The notes under the pieces were generated by a model. That model was given only the letters and a program-made list of their open reading frames with translations, had not been told where the DNA came from and did no database searches. Both the position numbers and the translations under genes were made by a program. Positions 40,601 to 57,743 of a stretch of DNA of 64,000 nucleotides are shown here, piece by piece (within the stretch, counting starts at the first letter, position 1; the number at the start of each line of letters is the position of its first letter). The stretch is from Allomuricauda sp. (GTDB taxonomy: Bacteria; Bacteroidota; Bacteroidia; Flavobacteriales; Flavobacteriaceae). The DNA lies in the NCBI GenBank assembly GCA_050303195.1, contig JBNLBG010000006.1:953-64952 (forward strand), given 5' to 3'.

Positions 40601-41203
40601 AATGATTTTGACCTTGGGATTCTGTTCCTTATGCTTTTCAATCCTACGAAATAAAATGGGGTGGCACCAAGCAGGATTGGCCCCGGCAATCAAAAAACAG
40701 TCGGCCAACTCAATATCTGCATATGAAATGGGAACAGCATCGTTGCCCACAGTTTTTTTATACCCAACTACGGCAGAACTCATGCAGAGCCTGGAGTTAG
40801 TATCGATATTATTGGTTCCTAAAAATCCTTTGGTGAGTTTGTTTGCCAAGTAATATTCTTCCGTAAGGCATTGCCCGGAAACATAGAGGCCAACACTATC
40901 TGGACCATCACGATCTATGATACTTTTGAAGACCGCGGCGGCCCTTTTTAGGGCAGTATCCCAAGTAACCCGCTGCATGGGGTGATTTCGGCTCCACCGC
41001 ATTTCTGGGTATAAAATCCGGTCTGTTGTGTCTTGGGCAACATAGTTCAGGGTCTTCCCTTTTGAGCATAACATACCCTTGTTCACAGGATAGTCCTCAT
41101 TGCCTTTTACGGTCAATACACCCTTGGCATCTTTGGTTACCTCGATGCCACATCCCACTCCACAATAGGAACAAATCGTATTGTATGTATCTTTTTTCTG
41201 CAT
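37670..41203 (-). CDS. nasA: assimilatory nitrate reductase: molybdopterin catalytic module fused to an FAD/NAD(P)H reductase module and a BFD-like [2Fe-2S] domain
   Basis: 1177 aa. N-terminal CSYCGVGCGIEV 4Fe-4S motif and MopB/NapA-like body. From about aa 706, KIIIVGAGAAAYRF and VVIVGGGLLGLELA Rossmann motifs. C-terminal CSCSQV...GCGSCKPEV BFD-like motif. Confidence 0.9.
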   Translation of the reverse strand: MQKKDTYNTICSYCGVGCGIEVTKDAKGVLTVKGNEDYPVNKGMLCSKGKTLNYVAQDTTDRILYPEMRWSRNHPMQRVTWDTALKRAAAVFKSIIDRDGPDSVGLYVSGQCLTEEYYLANKLTKGFLGTNNIDTNSRLCMSSAVVGYKKTVGNDAVPISYADIELADCFLIAGANPAWCHPILFRRIEKHKEQNPKVKIIVVDPRKTQTCALADLHLQILPGTDVILFNAMARWLIEKKKIDKSFIQKHTSNFEACKQVAFELSIRQAAEKCGIAADEIRKAAKMIADAKGFISMWTMGLNQSVIGVDKNVSLLNLSLLTGHIGKPGSGPFSLTGQPNAMGGREVGGMASLLAAHRDLGNPAHRKEVQEFWGGKEIHGDPGYTATEMFDALESGKMKAIWIICTNPIVSMPNAKKIERALQKASFVIVQDISHNSETTKYADLLLPAAGWLEKEGTMTNSERRISYLPKVIDAPGEALPDVEILWRFAQEMGYGGFDYKNTAEVYDEYCLMTKGTNIDISGLSHNRLKREGSFQWPVPSPDHKGTPRLFEDHDYFTANGKAHFNAPRNLYNKSEEPTPDFPLVLNTGRVRDQWHTRTKTGKVKRLLTHIPSPYLEMNKVDAYLRNLKEGDIALVKSRRGSVRVKVKINYDIRERVVFLPMHWGKILNDDFSRANNLTNDIVDPISKEPDFKYCAVQVEKYKKPKQKIIIVGAGAAAYRFIQTYREKNRVDELHVFSKEEHPFYNRVLLPEYVNEELPWESLQKLKQGELEKLRVDLYPQNGIQKINSQEKTVTDDQGQVHSYDLLVMATGSSAFVPGDVRIDLPGRFTMRERGDADRLKNYLAETGLPAVEQHVVIVGGGLLGLELAAALKKVNINISIIQRAPRLMERQLDPISSRLLAEDVSERGIQLFFDNEVSTIFEEKESQYTLMVNLKTGRTLRSNAVVYAIGTRPNIDLARKAGLETRRGVLVDPYLKTSDSSIFALGEIAEFENALYGITSAAEQQADIAANYILGDLGSIYRGSVLMNILKFENLDLCSIGMVNAPKNDPTYEEILLMDVSKRFYKKCIVKDDTLKGAILMGDKNEFAEFKRLIEEEIELSEKRDELLRGASNSEPLKGSLICSCSQVGDGNIKDAIAGGCTDFAQLCSQTGAGLGCGSCKPEVKAILNRQLKTVPV

Positions 41204-41244: not shown

Positions 41245-41266
41245 TACGTATAAATACGTAGTACGA
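41245..41266. promoter_or_regulatory. tandem TACGTA core motifs upstream of nasA (TACGTAtaaaTACGTAGTACGA)
   Basis: TACGTA at 41245-41250 and 41255-41260, with starts 10 bp apart, in the 133-bp spacer between the response regulator gene and nasA. Confidence 0.5.
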
Positions 41267-41336: not shown

Positions 41337-42026
41337 CTACACCAGCTTGTATTTGTTCGCTTTTTTGGAGAGATCGATAAGATTTTTCACTTTCATTTTC
41401 TTCATTAGATTGAAGCGATGGGTCTCAATGGTGCGTTTGCTGTTCTGTAATTTTTCAGAAATCTCCTTATTGGTATAGCCCGCCAACACCAGTTCCAGCA
41501 CTTGAAGTTCTTTGTTGGTCAGATCAAAGGGATTGTTTTTGTCTTCTTTAGAAGAAGACTTACCATTGATGCTTTTTTCTGGATTGAACAAGTTGTTCAC
41601 CAGAACATTGGATATATCCCCACTAAAATATTTTCCACCTTCCTGTACCATGTGTATGGCCTTGACAAATTCAGTCTTGCCCGTATCTTTTAACAGATAA
41701 CCGCTGGCCCCAGCCTGTACAGATTTTAGAATGTATTCTTCTGAATCGTGCATGGAAAGGATGATGCACTTGGTCTTTCTGTTGCCCACAGAGTTTAAAC
41801 GCTCCACGGTTTCAATACCGCCCAATTCGGGCATACGGATATCAATAATTAAGATATCAGGGGATTTATCATCCACCATCTTCAGGGCCTCCAAACCGTT
41901 GGAAACCTCGCCGATGACATCCAAGTCCGGTTCTTCTTCAAGTAATGCACGTATGCCATCCCGAACCAAAGAATGGTCATCGGCCAATACAATGCTAATG
42001 GTGTGTTGAAGTCCAGATTCTTGCAT
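41337..42026 (-). CDS. NarL/LuxR-family response regulator
   Basis: 229 aa. Receiver (LADDHSLVRDGI..., DILIIDIRMPELGG) and a C-terminal LuxR HTH (LTNKELQVLELVLAGYTNKEISEKLQNSKRTIETHRFNLMKKM). Confidence 0.9.
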   Translation of the reverse strand: MQESGLQHTISIVLADDHSLVRDGIRALLEEEPDLDVIGEVSNGLEALKMVDDKSPDILIIDIRMPELGGIETVERLNSVGNRKTKCIILSMHDSEEYILKSVQAGASGYLLKDTGKTEFVKAIHMVQEGGKYFSGDISNVLVNNLFNPEKSINGKSSSKEDKNNPFDLTNKELQVLELVLAGYTNKEISEKLQNSKRTIETHRFNLMKKMKVKNLIDLSKKANKYKLV

Positions 42027-42128: not shown

Positions 42129-43415
42129 CTATTCCGCCTTGGCTGTGGTAAAAAGTTTTGGTTTAATAATCAACATGGCCCACGCCCAGTTTTGGGAGCT
42201 GGCCGCATCGGCCTCAGCCACACCCTTAAGCTCATACATACCGTCTGCAGGAAATAGGTGCGAGTATCCAATCTTTAGGGCATATCCCTTGAACTTTTGG
42301 GTAAATACCAAATCAACCTCGGTACCCAAGGCATTTTCTCCACTTGGAAGATCTTGTTCGCCCTTAAAGTTCCAGACCTTGGCCAATAGGCCAGATTTTT
42401 CACCTAATTTGAAATTCGCACTGGCATGAATATCGAATAGCCCAACAGAGTTGGCATGGTTGCCCACATAGAAATAATCCATAAGGCCATTGAACTTGTG
42501 GTTGGTACCATATAGTGGAAAGAAGGCACCGGTTTCCCCAGCAGTTTGTCCATCATTTCCACTGATAATCTCGACTCCTGCACCAAGACCAACTGTGCTT
42601 GATGCCTTATAGCTGAGGTCGAGTCCCAACAAATAAGCTCCTTTAACATCTAAACCACCTTGTCTTTCCCCAGTTTGAAGAAATGCATTGGCTGCAAACC
42701 CAAAACTTCCTTTTTTATAGGTTAAATGTGTACCTAAGGTCTGCAAGCTGCTCAACCCATCGGCATTGTCATTTTCATCAAAGTTCTGAAAGCCATTGTT
42801 GAGCAATATCAGACTAGCTGCAAAGCTCTCCCATTTTTGTTTCAGGTAGAGCATCTGCATGGTCTTGTAGCTGAAAAAGCCCGTTGTACTATAGGCATTC
42901 CCAACGGACTGGAAACCGCTAGGGTTGTCATAATCCTGATTAAAGGCAAAAGCAAAATCAAATAAGAAATTACCTTTGGAATATTTGAGCAAGGCTGCAT
43001 CATGGTTACGGGCCTGTTGTGTCCAATCCACGCCACCCAAAATACGCTGGTCGTCATAAGAGAGTATTTGTCTACCCAATTTTGTAGACCATCCAGAGCC
43101 TAAGTCGAGTTGGGCCCATGCTTCAAACACGGCAAAGGTGTCGTTTTCATCATCGGGACGCAGCTGGCGGTTTTCACCCCAAACCATTACATCCTGAAGG
43201 CTTAGATAAAACTTATACTTTTCGGCTTGGTATCCCGCATTTAATCGCGCCCGGGTAGAAGTGGCAAAGCCTGGGTCTGCGGCGTCAGGGATTAAACTGC
43301 CAAAACCGTTTCTGTATTCGGTTCTTGGCCTGAACTCACCATCCAATGTAAATTGTGAAAAAGTGAATTGGGCTGTTAAAATAGCCAAGGCGAGTAATAC
43401 ATATTGTTTTTTCAT
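42129..43415 (-). CDS. outer-membrane beta-barrel porin (alginate-export-like family), part of the nitrate uptake operon
   Basis: 428 aa. Signal peptide, FTLDGEFRPRTEYRNGF start, alternating amphipathic strands, and an aromatic-rich C-terminus. Family assignment is from memory of similar Bacteroidetes genes. Confidence 0.6.
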   Translation of the reverse strand: MKKQYVLLALAILTAQFTFSQFTLDGEFRPRTEYRNGFGSLIPDAADPGFATSTRARLNAGYQAEKYKFYLSLQDVMVWGENRQLRPDDENDTFAVFEAWAQLDLGSGWSTKLGRQILSYDDQRILGGVDWTQQARNHDAALLKYSKGNFLFDFAFAFNQDYDNPSGFQSVGNAYSTTGFFSYKTMQMLYLKQKWESFAASLILLNNGFQNFDENDNADGLSSLQTLGTHLTYKKGSFGFAANAFLQTGERQGGLDVKGAYLLGLDLSYKASSTVGLGAGVEIISGNDGQTAGETGAFFPLYGTNHKFNGLMDYFYVGNHANSVGLFDIHASANFKLGEKSGLLAKVWNFKGEQDLPSGENALGTEVDLVFTQKFKGYALKIGYSHLFPADGMYELKGVAEADAASSQNWAWAMLIIKPKLFTTAKAE

Positions 43416-43458: not shown

Positions 43459-44292
43459 TCAATGTTCCAAAAAGTCGATAAGGTGTTTGCGATACTTGTA
43501 ATAATCGTTATGTTCCAACACTGCCTTTCTGGTTCTGGGACGTTCAAAATCTATGTTTAAAACATCGCCAATTTTGGCCCGTGGGCCACTGGTCATCATA
43601 ACCACACGGTCTGCCAAGAAAATGGCTTCATCCACATCATGGGTAATCATGACCGCAGTAATTTTTTCTTTGTTCCAGATTTCTATAAGAATATCCTGAA
43701 GTTCGCCCCGTGTTAGCGAATCCAACATTCCGAAGGGTTCATCCAAGAGCAGCACCTTGGGTTTAATGGCAAAGGCCCTTGCTATACCTACACGTTGTTG
43801 CATACCTTGTGACAATTCACTGGCCTTTTTATGGAATGCTCCATCAAGGCCCACTTTGTGTAGGTAATATTTAGCAATGTCCTTTTGTTGTGATCTACTG
43901 GCATTTGGAAACACACGGTTTACCCCCAGCAATACATTTTGCAAAGCTGTCATCCAGGGCATTAAGCTCGGGGCCTGAAAAATGACCCCGCGATCTGGTC
44001 CGGGCCCTTTTATGGTACTGCCCAAAACAGCAATATCTCCTCCTGAAATAGGGTTAAGACCCGCAATCATGGAGAGCATTGTGGTCTTGCCACAACCTGA
44101 ATGCCCAATGATGGTCACAAATTCTTCCTTTAGGATCTGTAGGTTCAGATGTTCAAGGACCACATAATCGCCCTTTGGAGTGGGGTAGACCTTTTTAAGG
44201 TCCCTCAAATCCAGCATAATCCTGTCCGATGGATAAGAAATACCATTTTCATGGGGTATGTTAACGGTCTTGTTTTCTATCTGCATTTCCAT
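43459..44292 (-). CDS. nitrate/sulfonate/bicarbonate-type ABC transporter ATP-binding protein
   Basis: Walker [10 protein letters not shown], signature [14 protein letters not shown], Walker [12 protein letters not shown]. Confidence 0.85.
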
Positions 44293-44314
44293 AATGCCTG
44301 TTTTTAAAATTATA

Positions 44315-45154
44315 CTATGCTACAAAGCTCTTTGGACTCAAATCAGGAAGCTCGTAGGTTTCCTGTGATACTGCCTTGCGCTCTTCACCAATCCCCATCA
44401 AATACTCAATAATGGCATTTCTGGTTTTTTTGTACTCCGGATCATCGTTCAATGCTGTTTTGTCTCTTGGACGTTCAATATCAATTTTGAACTCAGGACC
44501 CAATGTGGCCTTAGGGCCTGGTCGTAATGGTATGATCCTGTCAGCCATATAGATGCCTTCATCCACATCATTGGTGATGAGCAGTGCAGTGCGTTGGTCT
44601 TTGCTCCAGATTTTTAGGATTTCATCTTGAAGGTTCCCCCGTGTAAGCGCATCAAGGGCTCCTAAGGGTTCATCCATAATGATCATCTCCGGATTCATGG
44701 CCAATGCCCTTGCCACGGCAACACGCTGGCGCATTCCCCCGGACAGTTCCTTGGGCCTTTTGTTGCTGGCCGGCGTAAGGTTGACCATCTCTATATATTC
44801 TGCCACACGTTTCTTGATGGCCTTTTTGTTTTCCTTAGGAAAGGCTTCCTTTACTGCCATGGCCACATTTTGCCATACACTCAACCAGGGGAGCAGGGAA
44901 TAGTTCTGAAAAATGACCCCTCTTTCATGGCTGGTATCCACTACGGGGCTTCCCTTAAAAAGTACTTCACCGCTGGTGGGTTGCAACAATCCATTGATAA
45001 GGTTTACCAAGGTTGTTTTGCCACTTCCGGTGAAACCGACAATGGCCACAAATTCACCTTCTTCAATTTTGAGGTTGATATCGGTCAGCACTTCGGTACT
45101 ATTGATGCCTTCTCCGTAGGTCTTGCAAACATTGTTCAATTCTAAATATGCCAT
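44315..45154 (-). CDS. nitrate/sulfonate/bicarbonate-type ABC transporter ATP-binding protein
   Basis: Walker [10 protein letters not shown], signature [14 protein letters not shown], Walker [13 protein letters not shown] chose the ATG at 45154 (MAYLELNNV...); an alternative ATG at 45178 would overlap the permease gene. Confidence 0.85.
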
Positions 45155-45164
45155 AATCTTACTG

Positions 45165-46271
45165 TTAAGCGGTTGCATTTTTATTGAACGATACCATATT
45201 CTGGATCACCAACATGATTCTGTCCAGCAAGAATCCTATAATCCCTATAATGAACATGGCCACAATGATCTTTGAATTTGAATCATTGGCTCCATTTTGG
45301 AACTCTTCCCAAACGAAGGAACCCAAACCGGGACTCTGTGCCAAAAGTTCAATGGCTATCAGTACCATCCAAGCTACGGAAAGTGTTATCCGAAGTCCTG
45401 TAAAAATCAAGGGCAAGGATGATGGAAGGATCACTTTGAAGACTTTTTGAAATGGCCCAAGTTTCAATACCTTGGCAACATTGATATAGTCTTTATCCAC
45501 AGAAGAAACACCCATGGCCGTGTTCACCAAGGTTGCCCACATGGAGCAAAGCCCTACACTGATGAACGATATGATAAAGGCACTATCTTGATTGGAATCC
45601 TTGGTCATGGTCTTTACGATCATAAAAACCAACAACAACCAAACTACTGGAGACACGGGTTTAAAGATTTGGATCAGCCAATTGAACGAATTCCGCAATG
45701 TTTCGCTCAGACCAATAATGATACCAATAGGGACCGCAATGACCAAGGCCAACAGAAATCCTGCAAATACAGTTTCCAAACTAGTGAAAATTTGATCCAC
45801 AAATGATGGTCTTCCGGTATAGGTAATGGGGTCTTTGCCTTCGGCAACACGCTTTTTGTTGATGGCCGCCGTTTTTTCCTTGAAAGCCAACTTGTCGGCA
45901 CTGATTTTCTTATGGTCCGCAATCAACGTATTGAAAGATTCCCAAACCTGACCGGGGGATGGTAGTGTATTGGGCTGGCAACTTATATCACCAGACAGAA
46001 TACAGGCCTCCATTTGATCGGCGGCTGCCTGTCCTTGATCAGTTAAAGCTTTCTGGATTTTGTAGTCGGCCTCAATATTGTACAATGCTTTGGCGCCCAT
46101 GTGCCATACCCCTATAAATAGGACTATGGAGATCAAGGGAACAATAAATTTTTTGAAAACTGTCTTGAACTCCAGTTTTGGGGTCTTGACCTTCAATTTG
46201 GACAGGAGTGATTTTACCACTCCCATCCATTTGATGTCATTCACTTTAGTTGCAGTAATGCTTTGCTTCAT
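45165..46271 (-). CDS. nrtB: nitrate ABC transporter permease
   Basis: 368 aa. BPD-transport domain with a long periplasmic insert. EAA-like region [24 protein letters not shown]. Confidence 0.8.
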
Positions 46272-46283
46272 GATTTTTACTGT

Positions 46284-47669
46284 TTAAAGTGAGGAATCGT
46301 CCTTGTTCCCAATTTCAAAGCTGTTGATATAGCCTATGGGATCTTTGGCATCGTATGCGTTTCCATCGATGAAATCTGTAGTTGCAGGTTTGTAACCATC
46401 CGTTTCTGGAATATCCGCTGCGGGAATATGCCCTTCGGCTACCAAAAGCTTGGCCGCTTTTTTCCAGATATCAGGACGGTAGATGTCTTTAATAGTTTCT
46501 TCATACCAAGATGCTGGTTTTGGCTCAGGAATTTGGCCCCACCTTCTCATCTGGGTCAAGAACCAAATACCATCAGAATAAAATGGATAGGTAGCATTGT
46601 ACTTATAGAATACATTAAAGTCGGGCATGGACCGTTTATCTCCCTTTTCAAATTCAAAGGTTCCAGTCATTGAGTTGGCCAAAACAACTTCATCGGCTCC
46701 CACATATTGGGGCATGGATAGAATTTTAACAGCTTCTGCTCTATTGCCTGGCTCATCCAACCATTTTCCGGCACGAATCAACGCTTTGGTCACAGCAACA
46801 GCAGTGTTTGGATTTTCCTCAACAAACTTTTTGGTCATTACAAAGACCTTTTCAGGATTGTTTTTCCAAATGTCATAATTGGTGGTCACGGGAACTCCTA
46901 TTCCTTTAAATACGGCTTGTTGGTTCCAGGGCTCACCTACACAGTACCCATAAATGGTCCCAGCTTCTAAAGTAGCTGGCATCTGTGGAGGTGGCGTAAC
47001 CGATAACAAAACTTCGGCATCAATTTGTCCCTGCACATTATCGGCGGTGTACATTCCGGGATGGATTCCGGCCGCTGCTAACCAATATCTAATTTCGTAG
47101 TTGTGGGTAGATACCGGGAACACCATTCCCATTTTAAAAGGTTTTCCGCTGTTCTTATACGAGGAGATTACTGGTTTTAGGGCATCTGCCTTTATGGGGT
47201 GAACGGGTTTGCCATCTGCATCTTTGGGAACATTGGTTTTCATTTTGGACCATACATCGTTGGATACTGTTATGCCATTGCCATTCAGGTCCATTGAAAA
47301 TGGTGTGACCAGCTGGGCTTGTCGGCCAAATCCGGCTCCAGCTGCAATGGGTTGTCCGGCCAACATGTGCGAGCCATCCAATTGCCCGTCAATAACACGG
47401 TCGAGTACATTTTTCCAGTTGGATTGTGCCTCAACCGAAACAAAAAGACCTTCATCCTCGAAGAAGCCTTTTTCCTTGGCGATGGCCAAGGGAGCCATAT
47501 CGGTAAGTTTGATAAAGCCGAAGGTCAATTGAGGTTTTTCAATTTCCAGTGAAGTTTTAGGTACGTTTGCTTGGGCAGTTTCTGCTGTTTTTTTCTCAGT
47601 TTTCCCTCCGCACGCCATAAGGACTGCTGAGAGTAACCATGCGATTGATTTTAAAGTGATGTTTTTCAT
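46284..47669 (-). CDS. nrtA: CmpA/NrtA family nitrate ABC transporter substrate-binding lipoprotein
   Basis: 461 aa. Lipobox [32 protein letters not shown] and [13 protein letters not shown] are NrtA/CmpA signatures. Confidence 0.85.
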
Positions 47670-47683
47670 AATATTAAGCTTTC

Positions 47684-47697
47684 TACGTATTAGTACT
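47684..47697. promoter_or_regulatory. TACGTA core with flanking arm (TACGTAtTAGTACT) just upstream of nrtA
   Basis: Core at 47684-47689, 14 nt from the nrtA ATG (47669). The arm TAGTACT parallels TAATACT in the narK and nirB sites. Confidence 0.45.
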
Positions 47698-47881
47698 TAT
47701 TTATAGCAAATGTATACTGAGTAATGGAACTATTTTATGGGAAAGCCCATGGCTGCATATCTTTTTAATACATGAACTGTTATGTTACAAACCATGGAAA
47801 AACCTGTCAAAAAACATATTATTCTTTTAACTGACTGATTTATATTTAGATATGTATGGTTGAGGTTTACTGAGTCTGAGG

Positions 47882-48073: not shown

Positions 48074-48838
48074 CTATCCGGCCAAATAGAAATTGTGCTC
48101 CAAGATTTCCCTTTTCAAGTAGTCTACATCAACAATGCCTATTCGCTTGCCTTTTGTATTGATAAGGTTTTCTCTTTTAAGTGCGGAAAACGTCCTGATG
48201 ACCTGTTCTTCGGTTGTTCCGGCATAATCGGCATAATCCCTTCGACTCAGGGGTACATCAAGAAAGCCATTGGATTGCCCAAATTTTCGGTTGATGTACA
48301 ATAAAGTATCAATGACCCGCTCCCTAACGGTCATTTGGGAGAGTGACTTTACCTTTGCTTCGCTTTTGTTGAGTTCGTTGGCATAAAAAAGCATTAGATC
48401 ATAGGCAAATGACGCGTCGCTCTTCAGCACTTCTTGGAGCAGGTCCTTTGAAAAGTAGCAAAGGGTTGAATCTTCAAGGGCGATTGCCCCAATGGGGTAG
48501 AATTCTTCGGTGCCAAAACCACGATGGCCAATGATTTCCCCTGCTTTGGCAAAGCGAACAATTTGTTCCCTTCCGTTGATACCAGTTCTAAAAACTTTCA
48601 CCTTGCCTTTTAGGATAAAGAACAATCCGTTTACCGGGGCCCCTTCAATAATGAACTGTTGCCCTTTTTTACACCGGATATCATTTTTACGTTCCATAAA
48701 CTTCGCAACAACGGGGGAGCCAATGTTTTTTTTCAACAAACAATATTCATTATTGCAACGGCTGCACGAGGTGTCTGACATGGATGGTTTTCCATGTCTC
48801 TCCTTGATTTTGGGTCCGTATGCCTCGTAAAATTGCAT
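48074..48838 (-). CDS. Crp/Fnr family transcriptional regulator with an FNR-type cysteine pattern
   Basis: N-terminal C-x2-C-x4-C (CSRCNNEYC) plus a Cys in ALEDSTLCYF, the position equivalent to E. coli FNR Cys122 (ALETSMVCEI). cNMP-like beta-roll. The C-terminal HTH contains EEQVIR. Alternative start at 48781. Confidence 0.75.
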   Translation of the reverse strand: MQFYEAYGPKIKERHGKPSMSDTSCSRCNNEYCLLKKNIGSPVVAKFMERKNDIRCKKGQQFIIEGAPVNGLFFILKGKVKVFRTGINGREQIVRFAKAGEIIGHRGFGTEEFYPIGAIALEDSTLCYFSKDLLQEVLKSDASFAYDLMLFYANELNKSEAKVKSLSQMTVRERVIDTLLYINRKFGQSNGFLDVPLSRRDYADYAGTTEEQVIRTFSALKRENLINTKGKRIGIVDVDYLKREILEHNFYLAG

Positions 48839-48848
48839 CAGGGTCTAA

Positions 48849-50267
48849 TTATTTTGACTTAACATAAACAGGCTTGGGTTGTCCGGCTTTTCCAATTTTC
48901 TCTTCTCTTTCATCGGCAGTTGAGAATTTAATGGCCAATGACATAAATGCCGTTACCACTACAAATGCACCTATAATAAAGTATCCGCTAGAAACGGCTG
49001 AAGATGCAGCTGAGGCTTGGGCCGCTTTTACAGCCTCTTCACCCAATGAAGCATTGACCTTTATTGCGGCTGTTTCTGCCAGGGCCGATTTCGATTTCAA
49101 CAAAAGGGCGGCCAAAAAAGCCCCTACATTACCCCCAGCTCCCACAATACCTGATATGGACCCAATTGCTTTCTTATTGATAAAGGGAACCACAGAGAAC
49201 GTTGCTCCTTCCGCCATTTGAACGGTTAAACTGAATGCCACCAAAAATAGTATTCCAAAAGCTATACTGGTGGTCACAGAAAAAATGGAGAGCATGATGC
49301 CCTCAACGCCCAAGATAAGTGCCAAGAAAAGTACACGCCCTCTCAGTCCTTTCATTTTTCCAAACCGATCACCAAAGAAACCGCCCAAGGTTCTGGCAAA
49401 AATATTCATCAAGGCAAATGACAGAACCAAGTTACCAGCGGTTGTTCTATTAAGGTGAAATGTGTTTTGGAGATAATCGTCCATAGTTCCATATACCGTA
49501 AGTTCCATTCCAAAGCAAGCGGCATAGACTATGAACAAAATCCACACCCTATAATCTGTAAGGGTTTTCAAGAATGGAATCTCATCTTTCTTTTTTATGG
49601 GCAATTCTCCCTTTTCCTTTAACTCGGAAAAATTTCCTTCGGGCGTATCCTGAGTGAAGAAATAATAAACAATCCCCATGACAAAACAGATGATACCTGC
49701 TATGACCATGGAATAACGCCAAGCTATTTCATCTGCCACACCAAAGCTCACCACAGCGGCAGCGATCAAGGGCATTCCTAAGCGGTTGGCCCCTCCACCG
49801 AGGTTTCCCCAACCTGCGGAAGTAGCATTGGCGGTTCCCACAATATTTGGAGCAAACATAATTGAGGTATGAAATTGGGTAATTACAAAAGAGGCTCCAA
49901 TAAATCCGATAAAAAGGCGACATACTAAAAATTGCAAAGGTGTTTGCACAAAACCAATAAGAATAACAGGTAGTGCCCCAATGGTCAACAAAAAGGTATA
50001 ACATAATCTTGGACCGTATTTATCACATAGTTTACCGATAAGAAGTCGTGCAAAAACGGTTCCTGTTACCGCTAAAATGACCGAATTCCATTTTTGGTTC
50101 GGTGTCAATCCCAAATCCCTTACTACATCCGGCATAAACGGAACAATACCGAACCAAGCAAAGAAGCAGGTGAAAAATGCTATTGAGGTAATCCAAAAAG
50201 TTCTGGTTGGAATACTTTTAAAGTTTAATAGATTTAAAGCAGTGGCTTTTTGAGATGTAACGGACAT
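48849..50267 (-). CDS. narK: NarK/NasA family MFS nitrate/nitrite transporter
   Basis: I chose the ATG at 50267; the track start at 50291 is TTG. 12 TM. GWGNLGGG and GIVGAGGNVG are the two nitrate-signature (NS) motifs. Confidence 0.85.
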   Translation of the reverse strand: MSVTSQKATALNLLNFKSIPTRTFWITSIAFFTCFFAWFGIVPFMPDVVRDLGLTPNQKWNSVILAVTGTVFARLLIGKLCDKYGPRLCYTFLLTIGALPVILIGFVQTPLQFLVCRLFIGFIGASFVITQFHTSIMFAPNIVGTANATSAGWGNLGGGANRLGMPLIAAAVVSFGVADEIAWRYSMVIAGIICFVMGIVYYFFTQDTPEGNFSELKEKGELPIKKKDEIPFLKTLTDYRVWILFIVYAACFGMELTVYGTMDDYLQNTFHLNRTTAGNLVLSFALMNIFARTLGGFFGDRFGKMKGLRGRVLFLALILGVEGIMLSIFSVTTSIAFGILFLVAFSLTVQMAEGATFSVVPFINKKAIGSISGIVGAGGNVGAFLAALLLKSKSALAETAAIKVNASLGEEAVKAAQASAASSAVSSGYFIIGAFVVVTAFMSLAIKFSTADEREEKIGKAGQPKPVYVKSK

Positions 50268-50296
50268 GATACTTAGCTTTGTTTGAAACAAAAATA

Positions 50297-50321
50297 AGTA
50301 TTAATACGTATTTTTACGTAC
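50297..50321. promoter_or_regulatory. AGTATTA arm plus tandem TACGTA cores upstream of narK
   Basis: AGTATTAaTACGTAtttttACGTAC. Cores at 50305-50310 and 50315-50320, 10 bp apart. The proximal core lies 8 nt from a perfect -7 element TATTTTTG read on the minus strand (50296-50289), 21 nt before the ATG at 50267. Confidence 0.55.
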
Positions 50322-50454
50322 TTTCTAAAGCCAAACTATAGATTGACGCCGATTTTTATGAAGTTCATAATCTAAGGGAAGAAAATAATGGAAATGAAAA
50401 AAATATTCCTTTTTTTATTCGGAATTGAGAAATTAAAATAGGTTGATTGTCTAT

Positions 50455-51219
50455 CTAAAAGGAAGAGTGCAAAACCCGCATAACTTCTTCTTCAAAAAAG
50501 GAAGGGTGGTCTGCCACCACATCACCCACAACAATGATTCCCGGTTTTGATACATCAATGGATTCAAGCATGGCTTTTGCATTGTTCAATGTGTCGGTAA
50601 TGCAGGATTCTGTGGCTAACGTTCCATTTTGAATTACTGCTATCGGAGTCATTCCGCTTCGGTATTGCCCTATTTTACAGGTGATTTCCGCGAATCTTCG
50701 TATGCCCATCAGTATAATAAGTGTTGCTGAAGATTGGGAGGCCAAGCTTAAATCTTCTGAAAATCCACCGTCTTTTCTCGTTCCTGTTACTACCCAAAAA
50801 CTGCTGCTAACCCCTCTTTTGGTCACGGGAATACCCTGGCTTTCGGGTACAGCAATGGCACTGCTAATCCCAGGAACCACATCAATGGGTATTCCAAAAG
50901 ATTCCACATAATCTATTTCTTCGGAGGCTCTACCAAACACAAAGGGGTCACCTCCTTTTAACCGTACGGCATGGCCATATTGAAACGCACTTTCCACAAT
51001 CAACCGGTTAATTTCATCTTGGCTATGACTGTGCTTTGAGCATCTTTTACCTACGTATATTTTCGGTATGCCAAAGTCAACCTCAGCAAGTAGGTCTTTA
51101 TTGGTCAAGGCGTCGTACAAAACAACATCTGCTGACTTCAAAGTCCTCAAACCCCTTACTGTTATTAGGTCTGGACTACCTGGCCCTGCTCCCACCAAAC
51201 TCACTTTAGCTTCCATCAT
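50455..51219 (-). CDS. cobA: uroporphyrinogen-III C-methyltransferase (siroheme branch)
   Basis: 254 aa. VGAGPGSPDLITVRGLRTLKSADVVLYDAL and RLKGGDPFVFGR are SUMT motifs. Confidence 0.9.
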   Translation of the reverse strand: MMEAKVSLVGAGPGSPDLITVRGLRTLKSADVVLYDALTNKDLLAEVDFGIPKIYVGKRCSKHSHSQDEINRLIVESAFQYGHAVRLKGGDPFVFGRASEEIDYVESFGIPIDVVPGISSAIAVPESQGIPVTKRGVSSSFWVVTGTRKDGGFSEDLSLASQSSATLIILMGIRRFAEITCKIGQYRSGMTPIAVIQNGTLATESCITDTLNNAKAMLESIDVSKPGIIVVGDVVADHPSFFEEEVMRVLHSSF

Positions 51220-51271
51220 ATCGCGGTATTTTGATTTTCAATAAAAATTTTTATGAATCTGACAACAAAAA

Positions 51272-51277
51272 TACGTA
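51272..51277. promoter_or_regulatory. TACGTA core overlapping a minus-strand -7 element for cobA
   Basis: The minus strand reads TACGTATTTTTG. TATTTTTG (51273-51266) is a perfect TAnnTTTG, 46 nt before the cobA ATG (51219). Confidence 0.45.
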
Positions 51278-51294
51278 ATTATTTTTAAATAATC

Positions 51295-51326
51295 AGTATT
51301 AAATTACGTAATAATACTTAGTTTTG
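51295..51326 (+). promoter_or_regulatory. nirB promoter block: AGTATTAaatTACGTAaTAATACT followed by the -7 element TAGTTTTG
   Basis: Core at 51305-51310, 8-nt spacer, -7 element at 51319-51326, ATG at 51351. 20 of 22 nt are identical to the narK promoter block. Confidence 0.55.
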
Positions 51327-51340
51327 AAATGTATTTCAAA
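51323..51340. promoter_or_regulatory. 8+2+8 palindrome TTTGAAATgtATTTCAAA overlapping the nirB -7 element and the expected transcription start
   Basis: Perfect arms at 51323-51330 and 51333-51340. The position suggests an operator. Confidence 0.35.
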
Positions 51341-51350
51341 TTTCATGTGT

Positions 51351-53870
51351 ATGAAAACTGTAATTGTAATAGGTAACGGTATGGTAGGGTATAAGTTCTG
51401 TGAGAAGTTCAGGGCTCATCCTGCAAATTCTTCATTCAGGCTTCTTGTTTTTGGTGAAGAACCTAGACCTGCATACGACCGGGTGCACCTAAGCGAGTTT
51501 TTTGAAAATCAAGATGCCAAAGCATTGGAATTGGCACCCGCTTCTTGGTACAAAGACAATAACATTGAACTTATTACAAATCAAAGAGTTACAGACATTA
51601 AGAGTGACTCCAAAGAAATACACACGATATCAGGTGATTCCTTTTCGTATGACCACTTGGTACTTGCTACAGGTTCTGTTCCTTTTGTGCCTCCTATCAA
51701 GGGTGTTGAAAAGGAAGGGGTTTTTGTGTACAGAACCATTGAAGACCTTGAAGGCATGTTGGCTTATGCTGCCCAGATAAAAGCCATTAAGCCAAACGGT
51801 AAAGCGGCTATACTGGGAGGTGGACTCCTAGGGCTAGAAGCGGGAAAAGCTGTTTTGGATATGGGATTGGAACCTCATGTAGTGGAATTTGCACCAAAAC
51901 TTATGCCCAGACAATTGGATGCGCGCAGTAGTAATGTATTACAACTAAAATTGGAATCCATGGGCATGCAGATTCACTTGGGCAAAGCCACCAACCAAAT
52001 ATTGGGTGATAAGGTCATAGAAGGAATGGATTTTGGTGAAGATGACCAATTGGATGTAGATATGCTCATTATTTCCGCAGGAATTCGTCCAAGGGACGAG
52101 CTTGGAAAAACCTGCGGATTGGAAATGGGTACGCGTGGCGGAATTGTAGTAAACAACAAAATGGAAACCTCCGAAAAAGATATATATGCCATAGGAGAGG
52201 TAGCCCTTTACAACCACATGATATATGGGCTGGTGGCTCCTGGTTACGAGATGGCCGATGTAGCCGTGAACCAGATTCTGGGAAATCCAGAAACTATGAT
52301 GCCAGATGAAATCGACATGTCTACTAAACTAAAATTAATGGGGGTTGATGTAGCCAGTTTTGGAACACCCTATATGCCCGCGGACAAAGGCCTTTCCATT
52401 ATTTTTGAGAACAAGACCAAGTTCCTCTATAAGCGCATCAATGTTAGTCACGATGGTAAAACATTGTTAGGCGGCATTTTGGTTGGGGATGCAACTGACT
52501 ACAACATTTTGCACCAGATGTACCTAAACAATATGCCTTTGCCCGACAATGCTGAGGAATTGATTGTGGGCTCCCGCGGTGAAGGTGGCTCCGCTTTTGG
52601 CAGTGCCATGGATTTACCGGATACGGCCCAAATCTGTTCCTGTGAAAGCATCAGCAAAGGAGATATCTGCAGTTCCCTTATTGAAGGTAAATGCAATTCC
52701 TTAAAAGAAGTTGTCGGTCTTACCAAAGCCACAACAGGATGTGGAGGTTGCAAACCCATGGTAACCGATTTGGTCAACGAAACTCTTAAATCCCTTGGAA
52801 AAGAAGTTAAAGATGTTATTTGTGAGCATTTTGAATACACCCGCCAAGAATTGTATGGCATAATAAAGGTCAAAAAAATAACAACCTATGATGAAGCTTT
52901 GGACAAATGTGGAAAAGGAGATGGTTGTGAGGTTTGCAAACCAGCATTGGCATCCATATTTGCCACCATATATAATGATACTGCCAACAAGGAAGAGGTT
53001 ATTCAAGATTCCAATGATCGATTCTTGGCCAACATCCAAAGAAATGGGTCCTATTCAGTGGTACCACGGATACCAGGTGGAGAAATTACACCGGAAAAAT
53101 TAATTGTCATTGGAGAAGTGGCCAAAGAATATAATCTGTATACCAAGATTACCGGCGGACAGCGTATAGACCTTTTTGGGGCCGAACTGAACGACCTTCC
53201 CGCCATATGGAAAAAATTAATCGATGCCGGTTTTGAAAGTGGTCACGCTTATGGTAAATCATTACGTACCGTAAAAAGCTGTGTGGGTTCCACTTGGTGC
53301 CGCTACGGAATGGATGAAAGCGTAAGTTTTGCCATTGAGCTTGAAGATCGCTATAAAGGATTGCGATCTCCCCATAAACTTAAAGGAGGGGTCTCTGGCT
53401 GCATTCGCGAATGTGCCGAAGCCCGGGGCAAAGACTTTGGTGTAATTGCGGTAGAGGGTGGTTGGAACCTTTATGTCTGTGGAAATGGGGGCGCTACTCC
53501 CAAACATGCACTCTTGCTCGCCGAGCAAATAGATAACGAAACCGTTATAAAATATTTGGATCGCTTTTTAATGTACTATATCCGTACCGCTGCACCTTTA
53601 ATGCGTACAGCCGCATGGTTGGAGAAGTTGGAAGGCGGAATAGAACAGCTTAAAAAAATTGTGGTGGATGACAGCTTAAACATCGCCGAAGAGCTGGAGA
53701 TAGAAATGCAATCCTTGGTCGATAAATACGAATGTGAATGGAAACAAGCTGTGGAAAATGAAGAAATCAAAAAACGTTTCTCACATTTTGTAAATACCGA
53801 TGACAGGGATGATAATATAGTTTTTGTGCCCATGCGTGAACAAAAAATGCCAGAACCATGGACCAACTAA
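51351..53870 (+). CDS. nirB: NAD(P)H-dependent assimilatory nitrite reductase large subunit
   Basis: I chose the ATG at 51351 (MKTVIVIGNGMVGYKF); the track start at 51324 is TTG. FAD/NAD Rossmann folds, BFD-like CSCE...GCGGCKP, and a siroheme/4Fe-4S region SCVGSTWCRYG ... GCIRECAEA. Confidence 0.95.
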   Translation: MKTVIVIGNGMVGYKFCEKFRAHPANSSFRLLVFGEEPRPAYDRVHLSEFFENQDAKALELAPASWYKDNNIELITNQRVTDIKSDSKEIHTISGDSFSYDHLVLATGSVPFVPPIKGVEKEGVFVYRTIEDLEGMLAYAAQIKAIKPNGKAAILGGGLLGLEAGKAVLDMGLEPHVVEFAPKLMPRQLDARSSNVLQLKLESMGMQIHLGKATNQILGDKVIEGMDFGEDDQLDVDMLIISAGIRPRDELGKTCGLEMGTRGGIVVNNKMETSEKDIYAIGEVALYNHMIYGLVAPGYEMADVAVNQILGNPETMMPDEIDMSTKLKLMGVDVASFGTPYMPADKGLSIIFENKTKFLYKRINVSHDGKTLLGGILVGDATDYNILHQMYLNNMPLPDNAEELIVGSRGEGGSAFGSAMDLPDTAQICSCESISKGDICSSLIEGKCNSLKEVVGLTKATTGCGGCKPMVTDLVNETLKSLGKEVKDVICEHFEYTRQELYGIIKVKKITTYDEALDKCGKGDGCEVCKPALASIFATIYNDTANKEEVIQDSNDRFLANIQRNGSYSVVPRIPGGEITPEKLIVIGEVAKEYNLYTKITGGQRIDLFGAELNDLPAIWKKLIDAGFESGHAYGKSLRTVKSCVGSTWCRYGMDESVSFAIELEDRYKGLRSPHKLKGGVSGCIRECAEARGKDFGVIAVEGGWNLYVCGNGGATPKHALLLAEQIDNETVIKYLDRFLMYYIRTAAPLMRTAAWLEKLEGGIEQLKKIVVDDSLNIAEELEIEMQSLVDKYECEWKQAVENEEIKKRFSHFVNTDDRDDNIVFVPMREQKMPEPWTN

Positions 53871-54259
53871 ACACAAATAATATGGAAACACTATTTCAAC
53901 AGTACGCTACTGTTGCTTTGGAAAAGGTAACCGTTTGGTTTAAAGCCTGCCATGAGCGGGACATACCAGAAAATGGTGGAGCATGTATTAAATATAAGGA
54001 CAAGCAAATAGCCGTATATCATTTTAAACGAAAACAAAAATGGTATGCCTGCCAAAACCTATGTCCCCACAAAATGGAAATGGTTTTGAGCCGTGGTATG
54101 ATCGGTGACGCGGAAGGGATAGCAAAAGTAGCCTGCCCCATGCACAAAAAAACATTCTCTTTGGAAACAGGAGAAAACCTCAACGGAGATTTGCCCTCAA
54201 TTGCCACTTTTCCCGTAAAAGTGGAAAATGGCTTTGTGTATATTGGTTTTTCTGAATAG
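53858..54259 (+). CDS. nirD: nitrite reductase small subunit (Rieske-fold)
   Basis: 133 aa. NLCPHKMEMVLSRG ... ACPMHKKTFSLETGE follows the NirD pattern. An alternative start at 53882 avoids the 13-nt overlap with nirB. Confidence 0.85.
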   Translation: MDQLNTNNMETLFQQYATVALEKVTVWFKACHERDIPENGGACIKYKDKQIAVYHFKRKQKWYACQNLCPHKMEMVLSRGMIGDAEGIAKVACPMHKKTFSLETGENLNGDLPSIATFPVKVENGFVYIGFSE

Positions 54260-54279: not shown

Positions 54280-54870
54280 ATGGGCAAATCCAAAAAGCTT
54301 TTGGAAGCATTTCAATTATTTGATAAGGCCAATGCACAAGACCCCAATAAAGAAGTTTTTGAGGGTAAGGAATACGCCAAGGAACTTTTGTATGCACAGC
54401 GTATGACAGAAACCTTGAAGGAGTTTGAACCCAATGCCTCCGAAGCACTGCAGCTTACCGCGCGTTGCCAGCACATTTGCCGTTGGGAAATACCCCGGGA
54501 ATCCTATGAAATGAACCGAGTAGGCTATTTAAAATGGAGGCAGGACCTCAAAAAGTTTCACGCGGAAAAAGCAGGTGCCCTATTGAAAAAAGTAGGCTAC
54601 GATCAGGAAATTATAGACCGGGTCAGTTTTTTGCTCTTGAAAAAACAATTGAAGAAGGATGAAGAGACCCAAACTTTGGAAGATGTAATCTGCTTGGTTT
54701 TTTTAAAATATTACTACGAACCTTTCCTAATAAAGCACGATGATGACAAAATGATTTCCATTTTACAGAAAACTTGGAAAAAAATGTCGCCGAAGGGCCA
54801 TGCAGCCGCATTGGCACTATCTTTTTCCGATAGAGGTTCTGCCTTGGTCTCAAAAGCACTATCGGATTAG
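54280..54870 (+). CDS. DUF4202-like protein of unknown function
   Basis: 196 aa. RCQHICRWEIPRESYEMNRVGYLKWRQDLKKFHAEKAGALL resembles DUF4202 as I recall it. The family name is not verified. Confidence 0.5.
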   Translation: MGKSKKLLEAFQLFDKANAQDPNKEVFEGKEYAKELLYAQRMTETLKEFEPNASEALQLTARCQHICRWEIPRESYEMNRVGYLKWRQDLKKFHAEKAGALLKKVGYDQEIIDRVSFLLLKKQLKKDEETQTLEDVICLVFLKYYYEPFLIKHDDDKMISILQKTWKKMSPKGHAAALALSFSDRGSALVSKALSD

Positions 54871-54875
54871 CACAC

Positions 54876-54881
54876 TACGTA
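54876..54881. promoter_or_regulatory. single TACGTA core 17 nt upstream of the sensor kinase ATG
   Basis: cacacTACGTAatttgg lies in the 27-bp spacer after the DUF4202 gene. Confidence 0.3.
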
Positions 54882-54897: not shown

Positions 54898-56733
54898 ATG
54901 AAAAAGAGCAATCAGCAGCAAGCATTGGATGTCTCAACATTTTTGAGAATCCGTAAATGGTATCTATTAGCCCTTTCTGCCATTGCCCTTACGGTTATCA
55001 TTGCCCAAATTCTGATACAACAGCACCTTAATTCCCAATTGAGCGATTCCCGTGTGATTAATGTGGCGGGTCGTCAACGCGCCTATAGCCAAAAATTGGT
55101 CAAGGAGGCTTTGCTGCTCAACCAAGAAAATCTTGGAGACAGCGAACAACAAGAACTCTTAGATAAGCTGAAAAACACACTTTATGTCTGGAAGACATCC
55201 CATGAAGGGCTCCAAAAGGGAAATGACAGCATTGGACTTCCCAAGGAGGAAAATGAAGCCATACTTCAACATTTTAAGGAGCTTTCCATACACCATAATG
55301 CCATGGTCAATGCCGTGGAGTCCATGCTATCGGAACAAGACTCATTGAAAAATCAAGCTCAATTGAACATTTTACTGGCCAACGAAGCCCCTTTTCTTGA
55401 GAAAATGGATGCCATTGTAAACGAGTATGATACCATCAGCAAGGAAAAACTACAGAATTTGAAGGTGAAGGAATATTTGCTGTTGGTCTTTTCACTATTG
55501 ATTTTAATCTTGGAAGTGCTCTTTATTTTTAGACCGCTTTCCATACAAATCAGGGAAACCATTCGGGATTTGGTGAAAAGTAAATTACGGTCAGATCAAG
55601 ATGCCAAGGAAATCAAGAAAATATTTGAAGAGAAGGAAAAATCCCTTCAAGAGTTGAAGGAGTTAAACTTTGTGATTGACAATGCTGCACTTTTTGCCAG
55701 TGCCCGTAGCGATGGTTCCGTTGTTTTTATCAGTAAAAAGTTCATGACGCTCCTGGAAGAAACCAAAATCCCACCAAATGTGCACTTATCTGAGATTTTG
55801 ACAGTGGATGAGGGGCAACGACAATACCTACATGAGGTTTTGACCAAGCCTCGCAAAAGCATCCGAACCGAGGAAATTGAGATAAATACCAAAGCTGGGA
55901 AAAAACTTTGGTTAGACATGTCCATTATCCCCATGCACCCCTCGAGTTTAAAACAAAGCGTTTTATTGTTGTGTTCGGACATCACCGAACGCATGAACAA
56001 TCAGAAAAAAGTGGAACAGCTCACACTTCAGAATTACGAAGACCGGATGCGTCAAAAACAATTGCAGGCCAGCCTTATTGTTGAAGGTCAGGAAGAAGAA
56101 CGAAAGCGAATTGCCAAGGACATTCACGATGGTATTGGACAAATGCTTACGGCATTGCGGTTCAACATTGAATCCATCAACCTAAAAAACAAGGAAAAGA
56201 CCAAGGAAAAAATTGATTACCTAAAAAGTCTCACCTCAGACCTCATCAAAGGGGTACGCACCGCAACTTTTAACCTAACCCCACCTGAACTGGGTGATCA
56301 CGGAATCTTTCCCGCTTTGCAAAAAATGACCTCTGAATTGAGCAAATTGACCGGAAAAAACATTTTATTTGAAAATAAGGCCGAGGAGAACATCCGTTTT
56401 GACTCGCTGGCCGAGACCAATATTTATAGAGTTACCCAAGAAGCGGTGAACAATGCCATAAAATACGCTGATGCCAATTATATTTTGGTGACCATTAACC
56501 ATACCGGGGATCTGTTGAGTGTGGTCATTGATGATGACGGAAAGGGGTTTGACCCATCCATTCTGGAAAAACCACCTAAAAATAGCAGCGATGGTGGAAT
56601 GGGTGTGTTTTTTATGAGGGAACGCATCAGTTATATTAATGGTAGGCTTTTCATCAATTCAACTCTAGGAGAAGGAACCCGGGTCACCATAAATTACCAT
56701 CTTGGTGAAACCCTGCAAGAAGTAGAACAATAA
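54898..56733 (+). CDS. NarX/NarQ-like sensor histidine kinase (PilJ/P-box-type periplasmic domain, PAS, HisKA_3, HATPase)
   Basis: 611 aa. [15 protein letters not shown] is a P-box-like motif after TM1. A second TM follows, then a PAS-like region, [22 protein letters not shown] (HisKA_3) and an N/G-box HATPase. Confidence 0.85.
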
Positions 56734-56744
56734 ATAAAACGGCT

Positions 56745-57122
56745 ATGAAAATTAGAATAAAAGGAAATTCGATTCGATATAGATTGACCAAGACTGAGGT
56801 GGAAACCTTTTCCAAAACAGGGTCGTACCAGGAAACTACCGATTTTGGAAACAATGTGTTCACCTACGTACTAAAAGCAAAAAAAGGCATTGATACTTTG
56901 GAGGCGTCTTTTGAGGAAAATACGATAACACTATATCTTTCCGACAAGGAACAGTCTGATTGGGCAATATCGGACAGGGTTGGTTTCAATAACACGATGG
57001 ACTTACCCAATGGAAAGCAACTTTCACTGCTTCTGGAAAAAGACTTTGTATGTTTAGATGAGACCATCGAAGATCAATCGGACAATTATCCAAACCCAAG
57101 AACCGACACCAACGCTTGCTAA
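56745..57122 (+). CDS. hypothetical protein (125 aa)
   Basis: Follows the kinase gene by 11 nt. No recognisable motif. Acidic C-terminal half. Confidence 0.5.
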   Translation: MKIRIKGNSIRYRLTKTEVETFSKTGSYQETTDFGNNVFTYVLKAKKGIDTLEASFEENTITLYLSDKEQSDWAISDRVGFNNTMDLPNGKQLSLLLEKDFVCLDETIEDQSDNYPNPRTDTNAC

Positions 57123-57673: not shown

Positions 57674-57687
57674 ATGATTTATATCAT
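57674..57687. promoter_or_regulatory. FNR-type box ATGATTTATATCAT upstream of the cytochrome c-fasciclin-nosZ operon
   Basis: TGAT-N4-ATCA. Centre 57680.5 lies 29.5 nt from a perfect -7 element TACTTTTG (57710-57717), 26 nt before the ATG at 57744. On the other side AATCTTTG (57651-57644, minus strand) sits at the same 29.5-nt distance towards the Rrf2 gene. Confidence 0.6.
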
Positions 57688-57743
57688 GTTATAGGTTTGG
57701 GCCGCTACATACTTTTGGGGCATAATTTTTAACCAATTATGTC

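Follow-up and report, generated by a model that had tools for sequence, protein, structure and literature searches.

A palindromic element fused to the -7 box of nitrate-assimilation promoters in Allomuricauda sp. is most likely the operator of a Bacteroidota nitrate two-component system

The promoters of narK and nirB in a nitrate-assimilation cluster of Allomuricauda sp. share a block of 22 nt, which raises the question of what this block is, which protein reads it and to what effect. Much nitrate is consumed by marine and soil Flavobacteriaceae, and the regulation of its assimilation in this family is, to our knowledge, essentially uncharacterised. A first-pass annotation of the window (the whole stretch of 64,000 nucleotides analysed here) had proposed that the block is under selection and, from its place inside the core promoter, that it is a repressor operator or an unusual extended promoter element. 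Our analysis supports selection and the operator reading and extends them with a dimer-site palindrome, a likely binder and the extent of the regulon: judged from its sequence, the element is most likely the operator of an uncharacterised Bacteroidota nitrate two-component system.

Recomputed from the window sequence, the narK copy (TACGTATTAATACTTATTTTTG, minus strand, 50310 to 50289) and the nirB copy (TACGTAATAATACTTAGTTTTG, plus strand, 51305 to 51326) are identical at 20 of 22 positions and lie where they had been annotated. Both finish with TAnnTTTG, whose final G is found 21 nt 5' of the narK ATG (50268) and 25 nt 5' of the nirB ATG (51351), with 24 nt between in the latter case. The annotated distances of 21 and 24 nt to the ATG hold, as does that of 11.5 nt from the centre of the upstream TACGTA to the first T of the -7 box. 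In both promoters, TAnnTTTG stands at a plausible distance from the start codon for a Bacteroidetes sigma-A -7 element. The TTG at 50291, listed as a possible narK start, sits within this box and is unlikely to be a start. Allowing up to three mismatches, the 22-mer has four matches in the 64-kb window, including an additional one directly 5' of nrtA, compared with a mean of 0.00 in 100 dinucleotide-preserving shuffles. The hexamer TACGTA itself is about threefold over-represented in the window, with 16 occurrences observed and 4.7 expected.

The block lies in the following cluster, with gene products assigned by Pfam:

37670-41203, minus strand: nasA, fused nitrate reductase
41337-42026, minus strand: response regulator of the NarL/FixJ family, REC and GerE/LuxR helix-turn-helix domains
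42129-43415, minus strand: porin
43459-47669, minus strand: nrtDCBA
48074-48838, minus strand: Crp/FNR-type regulator, after narK in the narK operon
48849-50268, minus strand: narK
50455-51219, minus strand: cobA
51351-54259, plus strand: nirBD
54280-54870, plus strand: DUF4202 protein
54898-56733, plus strand: NarX/NarQ-like sensor kinase, with PilJ/NarX sensor, PAS, HisKA_3 and HATPase domains

The sensor kinase gene is the last but one of the nirBD operon. In nearly all related clusters, it is flanked by the DUF4202 gene (54280-54870) and a DUF7009 gene (56745-57122).

The anatomy of the block was analysed over 80 related loci, one genome per species, which were scanned with an alignment of the response regulator and were thus all chosen by that protein. 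They span Flagellimonas, Croceitalea, Maribacter, Zobellia, Arenibacter, Cellulophaga, Aquimarina, Lutibacter, Flavobacterium and others, and include one Saprospiraceae MAG. The 22-nt block combines a 16-bp palindromic operator with the remainder of a -7 box of the Bacteroidetes type, TAnnTTTG. Its initial 16 nt form an imperfect palindrome, TACGTAww-wwTACTTA, in which two TACGTA-like hexamers are placed at a distance of 10 bp; the operator ends in a TA that doubles as the TA of the -7 box, and the remaining 6 nt of the block complete TAnnTTTG. Over the 80 loci, the consensus is the inverted repeat TAMGTA-N4-TACKTA, with T-W-W-A at positions 7-10 and an equivalent 7-2-7 reading, TAMGTAT-WW-ATACKTA. 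Hexamer pairs are enriched at a spacer of 4 nt only, and at this spacer TAAGTA/TACTTA pairs occur 43 times as the inverted TAAGTA-N4-TACTTA, four times as direct repeats and never everted, while mixed pairs fit the inverted repeat in 101 cases against 7 that do not. Orientation and spacer counts therefore identify a true 16-bp palindrome, the format expected of a dimeric helix-turn-helix protein. The centres of its half-sites are one helical turn apart in either reading (7-2-7 or 6-4-6), as in operators of the NarL/FixJ family, and additional single hexamers near the operators are phased at about 10 bp.

The sites and -7 boxes in the window are:

41245-41260: nasA operator, the perfect palindrome TACGTATTTATACGTA
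41238-41231: nasA -7-like box, TAATTTCA, with the operator 6 nt upstream
47684-47699: nrtA operator, TAAGTACTAATACGTA in gene orientation
47714-47707: nrtA -7 box, TACATTTG, with the operator 7 nt downstream
50289-50296, minus strand: narK -7 box, TATTTTTG
50295-50310: narK proximal 16-bp operator, TACGTATTAATACTTA in gene orientation, its last TA being the TA of the -7 box
50305-50320: narK second, overlapping 16-mer, TACGTAAAAATACGTA in gene orientation
50315-50320: narK third hexamer, which creates the second 16-mer
51273-51266, minus strand: divergent cobA -7 box, TATTTTTG, its TA shared with the following hexamer
51272-51277: single TACGTA hexamer of the cobA/nirB region, 33 nt 5' of the nirB operator
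51305-51320: nirB 16-bp operator, TACGTAATAATACTTA
51319-51326, plus strand: nirB -7 box, TAGTTTTG, its TA common to the operator
54876-54881: single TACGTA hexamer in the 27-nt gap after the DUF4202 gene, 17 nt 5' of the kinase ATG and followed by TAATTTGG

The hexamer before the kinase gene may be a weak internal promoter or a half-site. An 8+2+8 palindrome, TTTGAAATGTATTTCAAA, is also found at 51323-51340, where it begins within the nirB -7 box and extends across the predicted start site. Folding gives a hairpin of 6 bp, and the 'tatttcaaa' part is kept within the genus; the palindrome may act as a second operator or form a structure in the leader.

Is the block specific to nitrate genes, or is it a promoter variant of general use? 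The strict motif TAMGTA-N4-TACKTA has six exact matches in the 3.5-Mb assembly. Five of them stand between genes of the nitrate cluster, one each before nasA, nrtA and nirB and an overlapping pair before narK. The sixth (C19:1417) falls within a 789-aa ORF on another contig. When a weight matrix built from the related loci was scanned over the whole genome, 11 matches exceeded 12 bits; the top five are the cluster sites and the next two are located within long ORFs. The strict site at C19:1417 and the match on contig C26 are taken as chance, both being inside long ORFs. Separately, the scan shows a weak intergenic match of 15 bits, TACGTAATACTACTAA, at position 98406 of contig C6, about 33 kb past the end of the window, which is the sole intergenic match above 13 bits outside the cluster.

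The first-pass annotation had also considered that the 22-mer could be a generic strong-promoter variant, common at unrelated promoters. This is at odds with the whole-genome matrix scan, in which the intergenic high scorers are confined to the nitrate cluster. Moreover, the short part TACKTAnnTTTG accounts for 25 of the 3509 TAnnTTTG boxes in the genome, which is the background frequency; the specific element is therefore the 16-mer and not a promoter variant, and a generic extended -7 element was ruled out on the same count. Of the two roles first proposed for the block, a repressor operator or an extended promoter element, the operator stands, while the extended element is left unsupported because the generic-promoter reading fails. 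It is hardly credible that no dedicated regulator is involved at all, the block being a generic strong promoter, a chance similarity or a leader RNA hairpin. Intergenic DNA is AT-rich here, TACKTAnnTTTG alone does occur 25 times in the genome and the palindromes are able to form short hairpins; against this, the 16-mer is missing from the other promoters of the genome, the window shuffles yield no 22-mer match, and the 16-mer is kept across genera between divergent flanks. The hairpin reading was rejected after folding four sites as RNA, since the energies are unremarkable (z from -1.6 to +0.9) and most sites are upstream of the predicted start.

Conservation was then compared with gene content. 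Within the genus, 6 of 18 other sampled genomes have clustered sites, all with the same cluster, and these sites precede nirB, the transporter operon and nasA. The six are exactly those of the 18 with a kinase ortholog, giving seven kinase genomes in all with clustered sites; the other 12 have no such site cluster, and one of them, the kinase-less genome G007, contains two TAAGTA-type sites separated by 4 kb. When upstream regions are aligned, the sites prove to be kept while the flanks have diverged. A class-level draw of 401 genomes contained 21 with nirB. Sites are carried by all nine nirB genomes with the kinase, while the 12 nirB loci from genomes without the NarX-like kinase and the NarL/FixJ-type response regulator contain no strict site in about 230 kb and, apart from one isolated exception, no TACGTA-like hexamer before nirB. 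In one of these 12, L130 (G427:C23:58000-77900), the pair of kinase and regulator beside nirBD is a different one, with 32-39% identity; TAMGTA-N4-TACKTA sites are missing, and the locus presumably represents an independent regulatory solution. With kinase orthologs of only 40-49% identity, from other genera and two other families, the motif is found again before nirB, porin-nrt or nasA.

The 80 loci contain 224 strict sites in 1.4 Mb, only one of which is within an identified gene. A site precedes nirB in 54/54 cases, nasA in 55/60, nrtA in 27/31 and narK in 22/26, and nearly all of 25 initially unassigned sites stand before further MFS NarK-type transporters. Three Maribacter loci (L063:478-891, L065:476-889 and L068:535-948) carry a gene for a 137-aa single-domain globin with a strict operator 55-59 nt upstream, which suggests that detoxification of NO or nitrite is part of the same regulon in Maribacter. 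Fifty non-redundant nirB promoters from many genera retain the fusion of 16-mer and -7 box, bearing out the selection that had been proposed from two promoters of one genome. All same-genus loci and most of the distant ones have the regulator gene within the cluster; in G090 and G167, it is absent from the 20-kb locus examined. What the motif co-occurs with is the cluster type as a whole and not just the regulator.

Which protein binds the operator? Sequence comparison points, with good confidence, to the NarL/FixJ-family response regulator encoded at 41337-42026 as the probable binder. Its best solved relative is NarL (E 4e-33), and its DNA-binding domain is closest to those of SsrB, EsrB and FixJ. 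The FixJ C-terminal domain (1x3u) matches it with an E-value of 3.6e-9 and with the recognition helix aligned (RTIETHRFNLMKKM in the regulator, RTVEVHRANVMAKM in FixJ). Residues D16, D17, D62 and K113 are invariant in eight orthologs, and the Pfam domains are Response_reg and GerE for the regulator and HisKA_3 for the kinase, as in a cognate pair with an intact phospho-acceptor. Matching the base-contact residues of NarL to the motif was abandoned for the FixJ comparison: these residues, which we take to be K188, V189 and K192, are not conserved in the regulator. Because of this, the argument for the binder rests on likeness to FixJ and on co-occurrence. The operator itself carries a TAMGTA core in a 16-bp frame, as do published FixJ sites, which comprise the SELEX class GTAMGTAG and the 16-bp fixK site TAAGTAATTTCCCTTA (PMC4999443). 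The E. coli NarL heptamer is TACYYMT (PMC4886647); the operator lacks its pyrimidines at positions 4 and 5, position 4 being G by the definition of the motif, and the site logo is better fitted by the FixJ-type TAMGTA.

The putative partner kinase keeps the periplasmic P-box of NarX/NarQ, VINVAGRQR, with the conserved Arg of the pattern I-N-x-A-G-x-x-R, as expected of a NarX/NarQ sensor. Its transmitter module differs, with no match to HAMP or GAF in Pfam and PAS_9 instead. This agrees with the HAMP-less, PAS-containing class of Bacteroidetes kinases described in a review of nitrate-sensing kinases, which named Bacteroidetes kinase/regulator pairs narHK/narRR from gene order alone (PMC8199190).

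Binding of the palindrome by another protein, either the FNR-like Crp-family regulator (48074-48838) or a global nitrogen regulator, is improbable. The Crp/FNR gene is located in the narK operon, its ortholog adjoins triple-hexamer sites in several genera, Crp-family sites likewise have a 16-bp palindrome format, and the co-occurrence of motif and response regulator is partly forced by the choice of loci. Against this neighbour as binder, five genomes that keep the motif (G002, G014, G016, G005 and G265) have only Crp paralogs, 25-31% identical, compared with 55-57% for true orthologs elsewhere, and it was rejected for want of an ortholog there. The motif also differs from TTGAT-N4-ATCAA, while a proper FNR box is present elsewhere in the window, and the half-site of the motif equals the FixJ half-site TAMGTA. 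A global regulator is also made less likely by a regulon that does not reach beyond the cluster. With N4 between GTA and TAC, the motif departs from the N8 of NtcA. An NtcA-like GTA-N8-TAC was discarded for this reason, N8 arising only by accident at the narK triple hexamer. By eye, a sigma-54 reading of the TTGC that follows some sites was also dropped, there being no GG at -24.

Given a response regulator as the probable binder, does it repress or activate? To compare site positions, the T of TAnnTTTG was set at -12, with the -7 boxes taken as consensus matches and the starts assumed from them. As a calibration, the FNR-type box ATGATTTATATCAT (57674-57687) before the cytochrome c-fasciclin-nosZ operon is centred at exactly -41.5 relative to the start predicted from the -7 box TACTTTTG (57710-57717), and ordinary class II geometry therefore holds in Allomuricauda sp. 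On this scale, the operators of the cluster are positioned as follows:

nirB and narK proximal operators: -26 to -11, centre -18.5
narK third hexamer: -36 to -31
nasA operator: about -34 to -19, centre -26.5
nrtA operator: about +4 to +19, centre +11.5

The two narK 16-mers together present three hexamers in 10-bp phasing over about -36 to -11. The placement of the block inside the core promoter, as first annotated, is thus borne out at narK and nirB by the overlap of the operator with the -7 box. Across the 80 loci, sites range from -38 to +19, always inside the polymerase footprint, and cover the TA of the -7 box or the start site.

The fusion is most regular at nirB, where the -7 box begins at a fixed offset, site position 14, in 35 of 55 records exactly; counting TAnnATTG variants as well raises this to 98%. 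Of 50 nirB promoters, 98% have the G of the -7 TTG at site position +21, while only 11% have its symmetric counterpart, a C at -6; the TTG is therefore a separate, promoter-specific element. The fusion recurs at narK, in other genera too, at cobA and in subsets of the nasA, nrtA and porin promoters. A hexamer at -33 is found in 27 of 50 non-redundant nirB promoters, and the flank caacaagaaTACGTA of the cobA-side hexamer is kept in the nirB promoter alignment. The alignments of nirB, narK and nrtA promoters show no TTG where a -33 element would be expected, about 19 nt upstream of the -7 box; the lack of this element is typical of activator-dependent promoters. A scan for sigma-70-type promoters over 50200-51400 gave no more hits than shuffles, with a model that is uninformative for Bacteroidetes promoters.

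With the regulator as binder, the geometry makes repression the more likely sign. Unusual activation would then be the rather unlikely alternative, the remainder falling to dual or context-dependent action. The opposite sign from the same protein, taken as a complete explanation, is doubtful: the phosphorylated regulator would be a nitrate-dependent activator at an unusually promoter-proximal site. From there, it would replace the missing -33 contact or touch sigma beside the -7 box, as the pho box replaces the -35 element. The physiological logic would be natural, with nitrate sensed and nitrate genes on; NarL and FixJ, to which the regulator is related, activate regulons of nitrogen oxides or oxygen; a -33 TTG is missing from the promoters; and the presence of the kinase and regulator genes within the regulated operons would create the positive feedback common in two-component systems. 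The fixed register of hexamer and -7 box at nirB, narK, cobA and some nasA, nrtA and porin promoters also speaks for activation. The exact coincidence of hexamer TA and -7 TA at several promoters could reflect contact between protein and polymerase instead of competition. The register is weak evidence of such contact, because it is the sole overlap of TACKTA and TAnnTTTG that spares both consensuses.

Activation is harder to reconcile with the sites at and beyond the start. The nrtA layout of hexamer, TAnnTTTG, 7 nt and full site is shared by 12 loci from several genera, this window included, which places a full dimer site at about +4 to +19, downstream of a conserved -7 box, with 17-23 nt between the full site and the ATG. 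At nirB, an extra hexamer lies over the start site (about -3 to +3 or +5 to +10) in 26 of 50 non-redundant promoters, compared with 2.3 expected from shuffles, and at least two lineages contribute to this excess. Finally, the spread of positions from about -38 to +19 offers no single activating position, while the canonical -41.5 of the FNR box in the same genome shows that ordinary activator geometry applies.

As a whole, the explanation that the regulator binds the 16-mer and represses from the core promoter has a slightly better than even chance. A dimer of the response regulator of the cluster would occupy the operator, its partner being the HAMP-less NarX-like nitrate sensor kinase (54898-56733). 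The predicted regulon is the nitrate-assimilation cluster: nasA, nrtABCD-porin, narK, cobA and nirBD-DUF4202-kinase. Since operators and extra hexamers lie over the -7 box, the start site or the -33 region, the DNA-bound regulator should exclude RNA polymerase. The bound state would then be OFF, and expression would come on when a signal, presumably nitrate or nitrite, reduces occupancy. In NarL-type regulators, it is normally the phosphorylated form that binds DNA. Repression would therefore require either a kinase of reversed polarity, shifted towards phosphatase activity by nitrate, or an unphosphorylated regulator that binds DNA. A nitrate sensor that turns nitrate assimilation off via its regulator is the reverse of the usual NarXL and FixLJ logic. 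We tentatively suggest, as a possibility below even odds, that Flavobacteriaceae and some other Bacteroidota use an inverted-logic NarX-like system, in which a FixJ-like core-promoter repressor controls all nitrate-assimilation operons, those with its own gene and the kinase gene included, and nitrate, by binding the HAMP-less kinase, lowers the occupancy of the regulator and derepresses them.

The role of the HAMP-less sensors of Bacteroidetes is posed as an open question in the nitrate-kinase review (PMC8199190). With the proposed operator, this sensor class gains an output, a complete small regulon and a testable rule, the overlap of operator and -7 box. If the repressor reading is true, a NarX-type sensor can be wired with opposite polarity, which bears on HAMP-less signalling. 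If the inverted logic is true, the system would be a nitrate-responsive two-component repressor switch without a described counterpart among NarXL-type systems. For Bacteroidota genetics, the operator with its -7 box could supply a small expression switch that responds to nitrate. In the literature searched, where the nitrate-kinase review alone was relevant to such a Bacteroidetes regulator, no description of the motif, regulon or geometry was found; subscription journals or regulon databases may hold one.

Compared to known systems, the closest likeness is to NarXL and FixLJ. NarL sites have a 7-2-7 layout, and NarL represses where heptamers overlap the -10 or +1 region, as at frdA, dmsA and nrfA. 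The P-box of E. coli NarX/NarQ is also present in the sensor described here, and the REC and GerE domains of NarL, the best solved relative, in the regulator. NarL sites are tail-to-tail heptamer pairs with a 2-bp spacer and T-A-C at positions 1-3 and T at 7, as in this operator, and the extra single heptamers found near pairs for NarL/NarP resemble the single hexamers here. However, position 4 of the NarL heptamer is Y and here an invariant G; NarXL targets respiratory genes, whereas the targets here are assimilatory; and the promoters are of the Bacteroidetes -33/-7 type, unlike the E. coli targets of NarL. NarX/NarQ also have HAMP and GAF-like domains, in the place of which the kinase here has PAS, as the review describes for its class (PMC8199190). 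The S. meliloti FixJ site at fixK (TAAGTAATTTCCCTTA) has the same TAMGTA half-site and 16-bp 6-4-6 frame, and the recognition helix of FixJ is very similar to that of the regulator. FixJ differs in being driven by the oxygen sensor FixL and not by a NarX-like kinase, in activating from about -69 to -31 and not from sites in the core promoter, and in having an only half-palindromic site at fixK, whereas the operator here is palindromic.

Pathway-specific control of nas/nir genes by nitrate, nitrite or nitrogen status is also exerted by NasS-NasT, NasR, NtcA, TnrA/GlnR and NreBC. Unlike the system here, NasT and NasR act on RNA, and the motif of NtcA, GTA-N8-TAC, differs from TAMGTA-N4-TACKTA. 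The motifs of TnrA and NreC differ from it as well, and none of these systems is a NarX-like kinase with a FixJ-like regulator at the core promoter. The narHK/narRR pairs of Flavobacteriales and Cytophagales have the same HAMP-less, PAS-containing kinase class and the same regulator beside nitrate genes, and neither a DNA motif nor a regulon or promoter geometry is given for them in the passages of the review consulted (PMC8199190). Taken together, the predicted system belongs by its domain content to the broad NarXL/FixLJ family, with a putative operator that is FixJ-like in sequence and NarL-like in layout, and it departs from that family in four ways: a HAMP-less sensor, assimilatory targets, Bacteroidetes -7-type promoters and placement in the core promoter.
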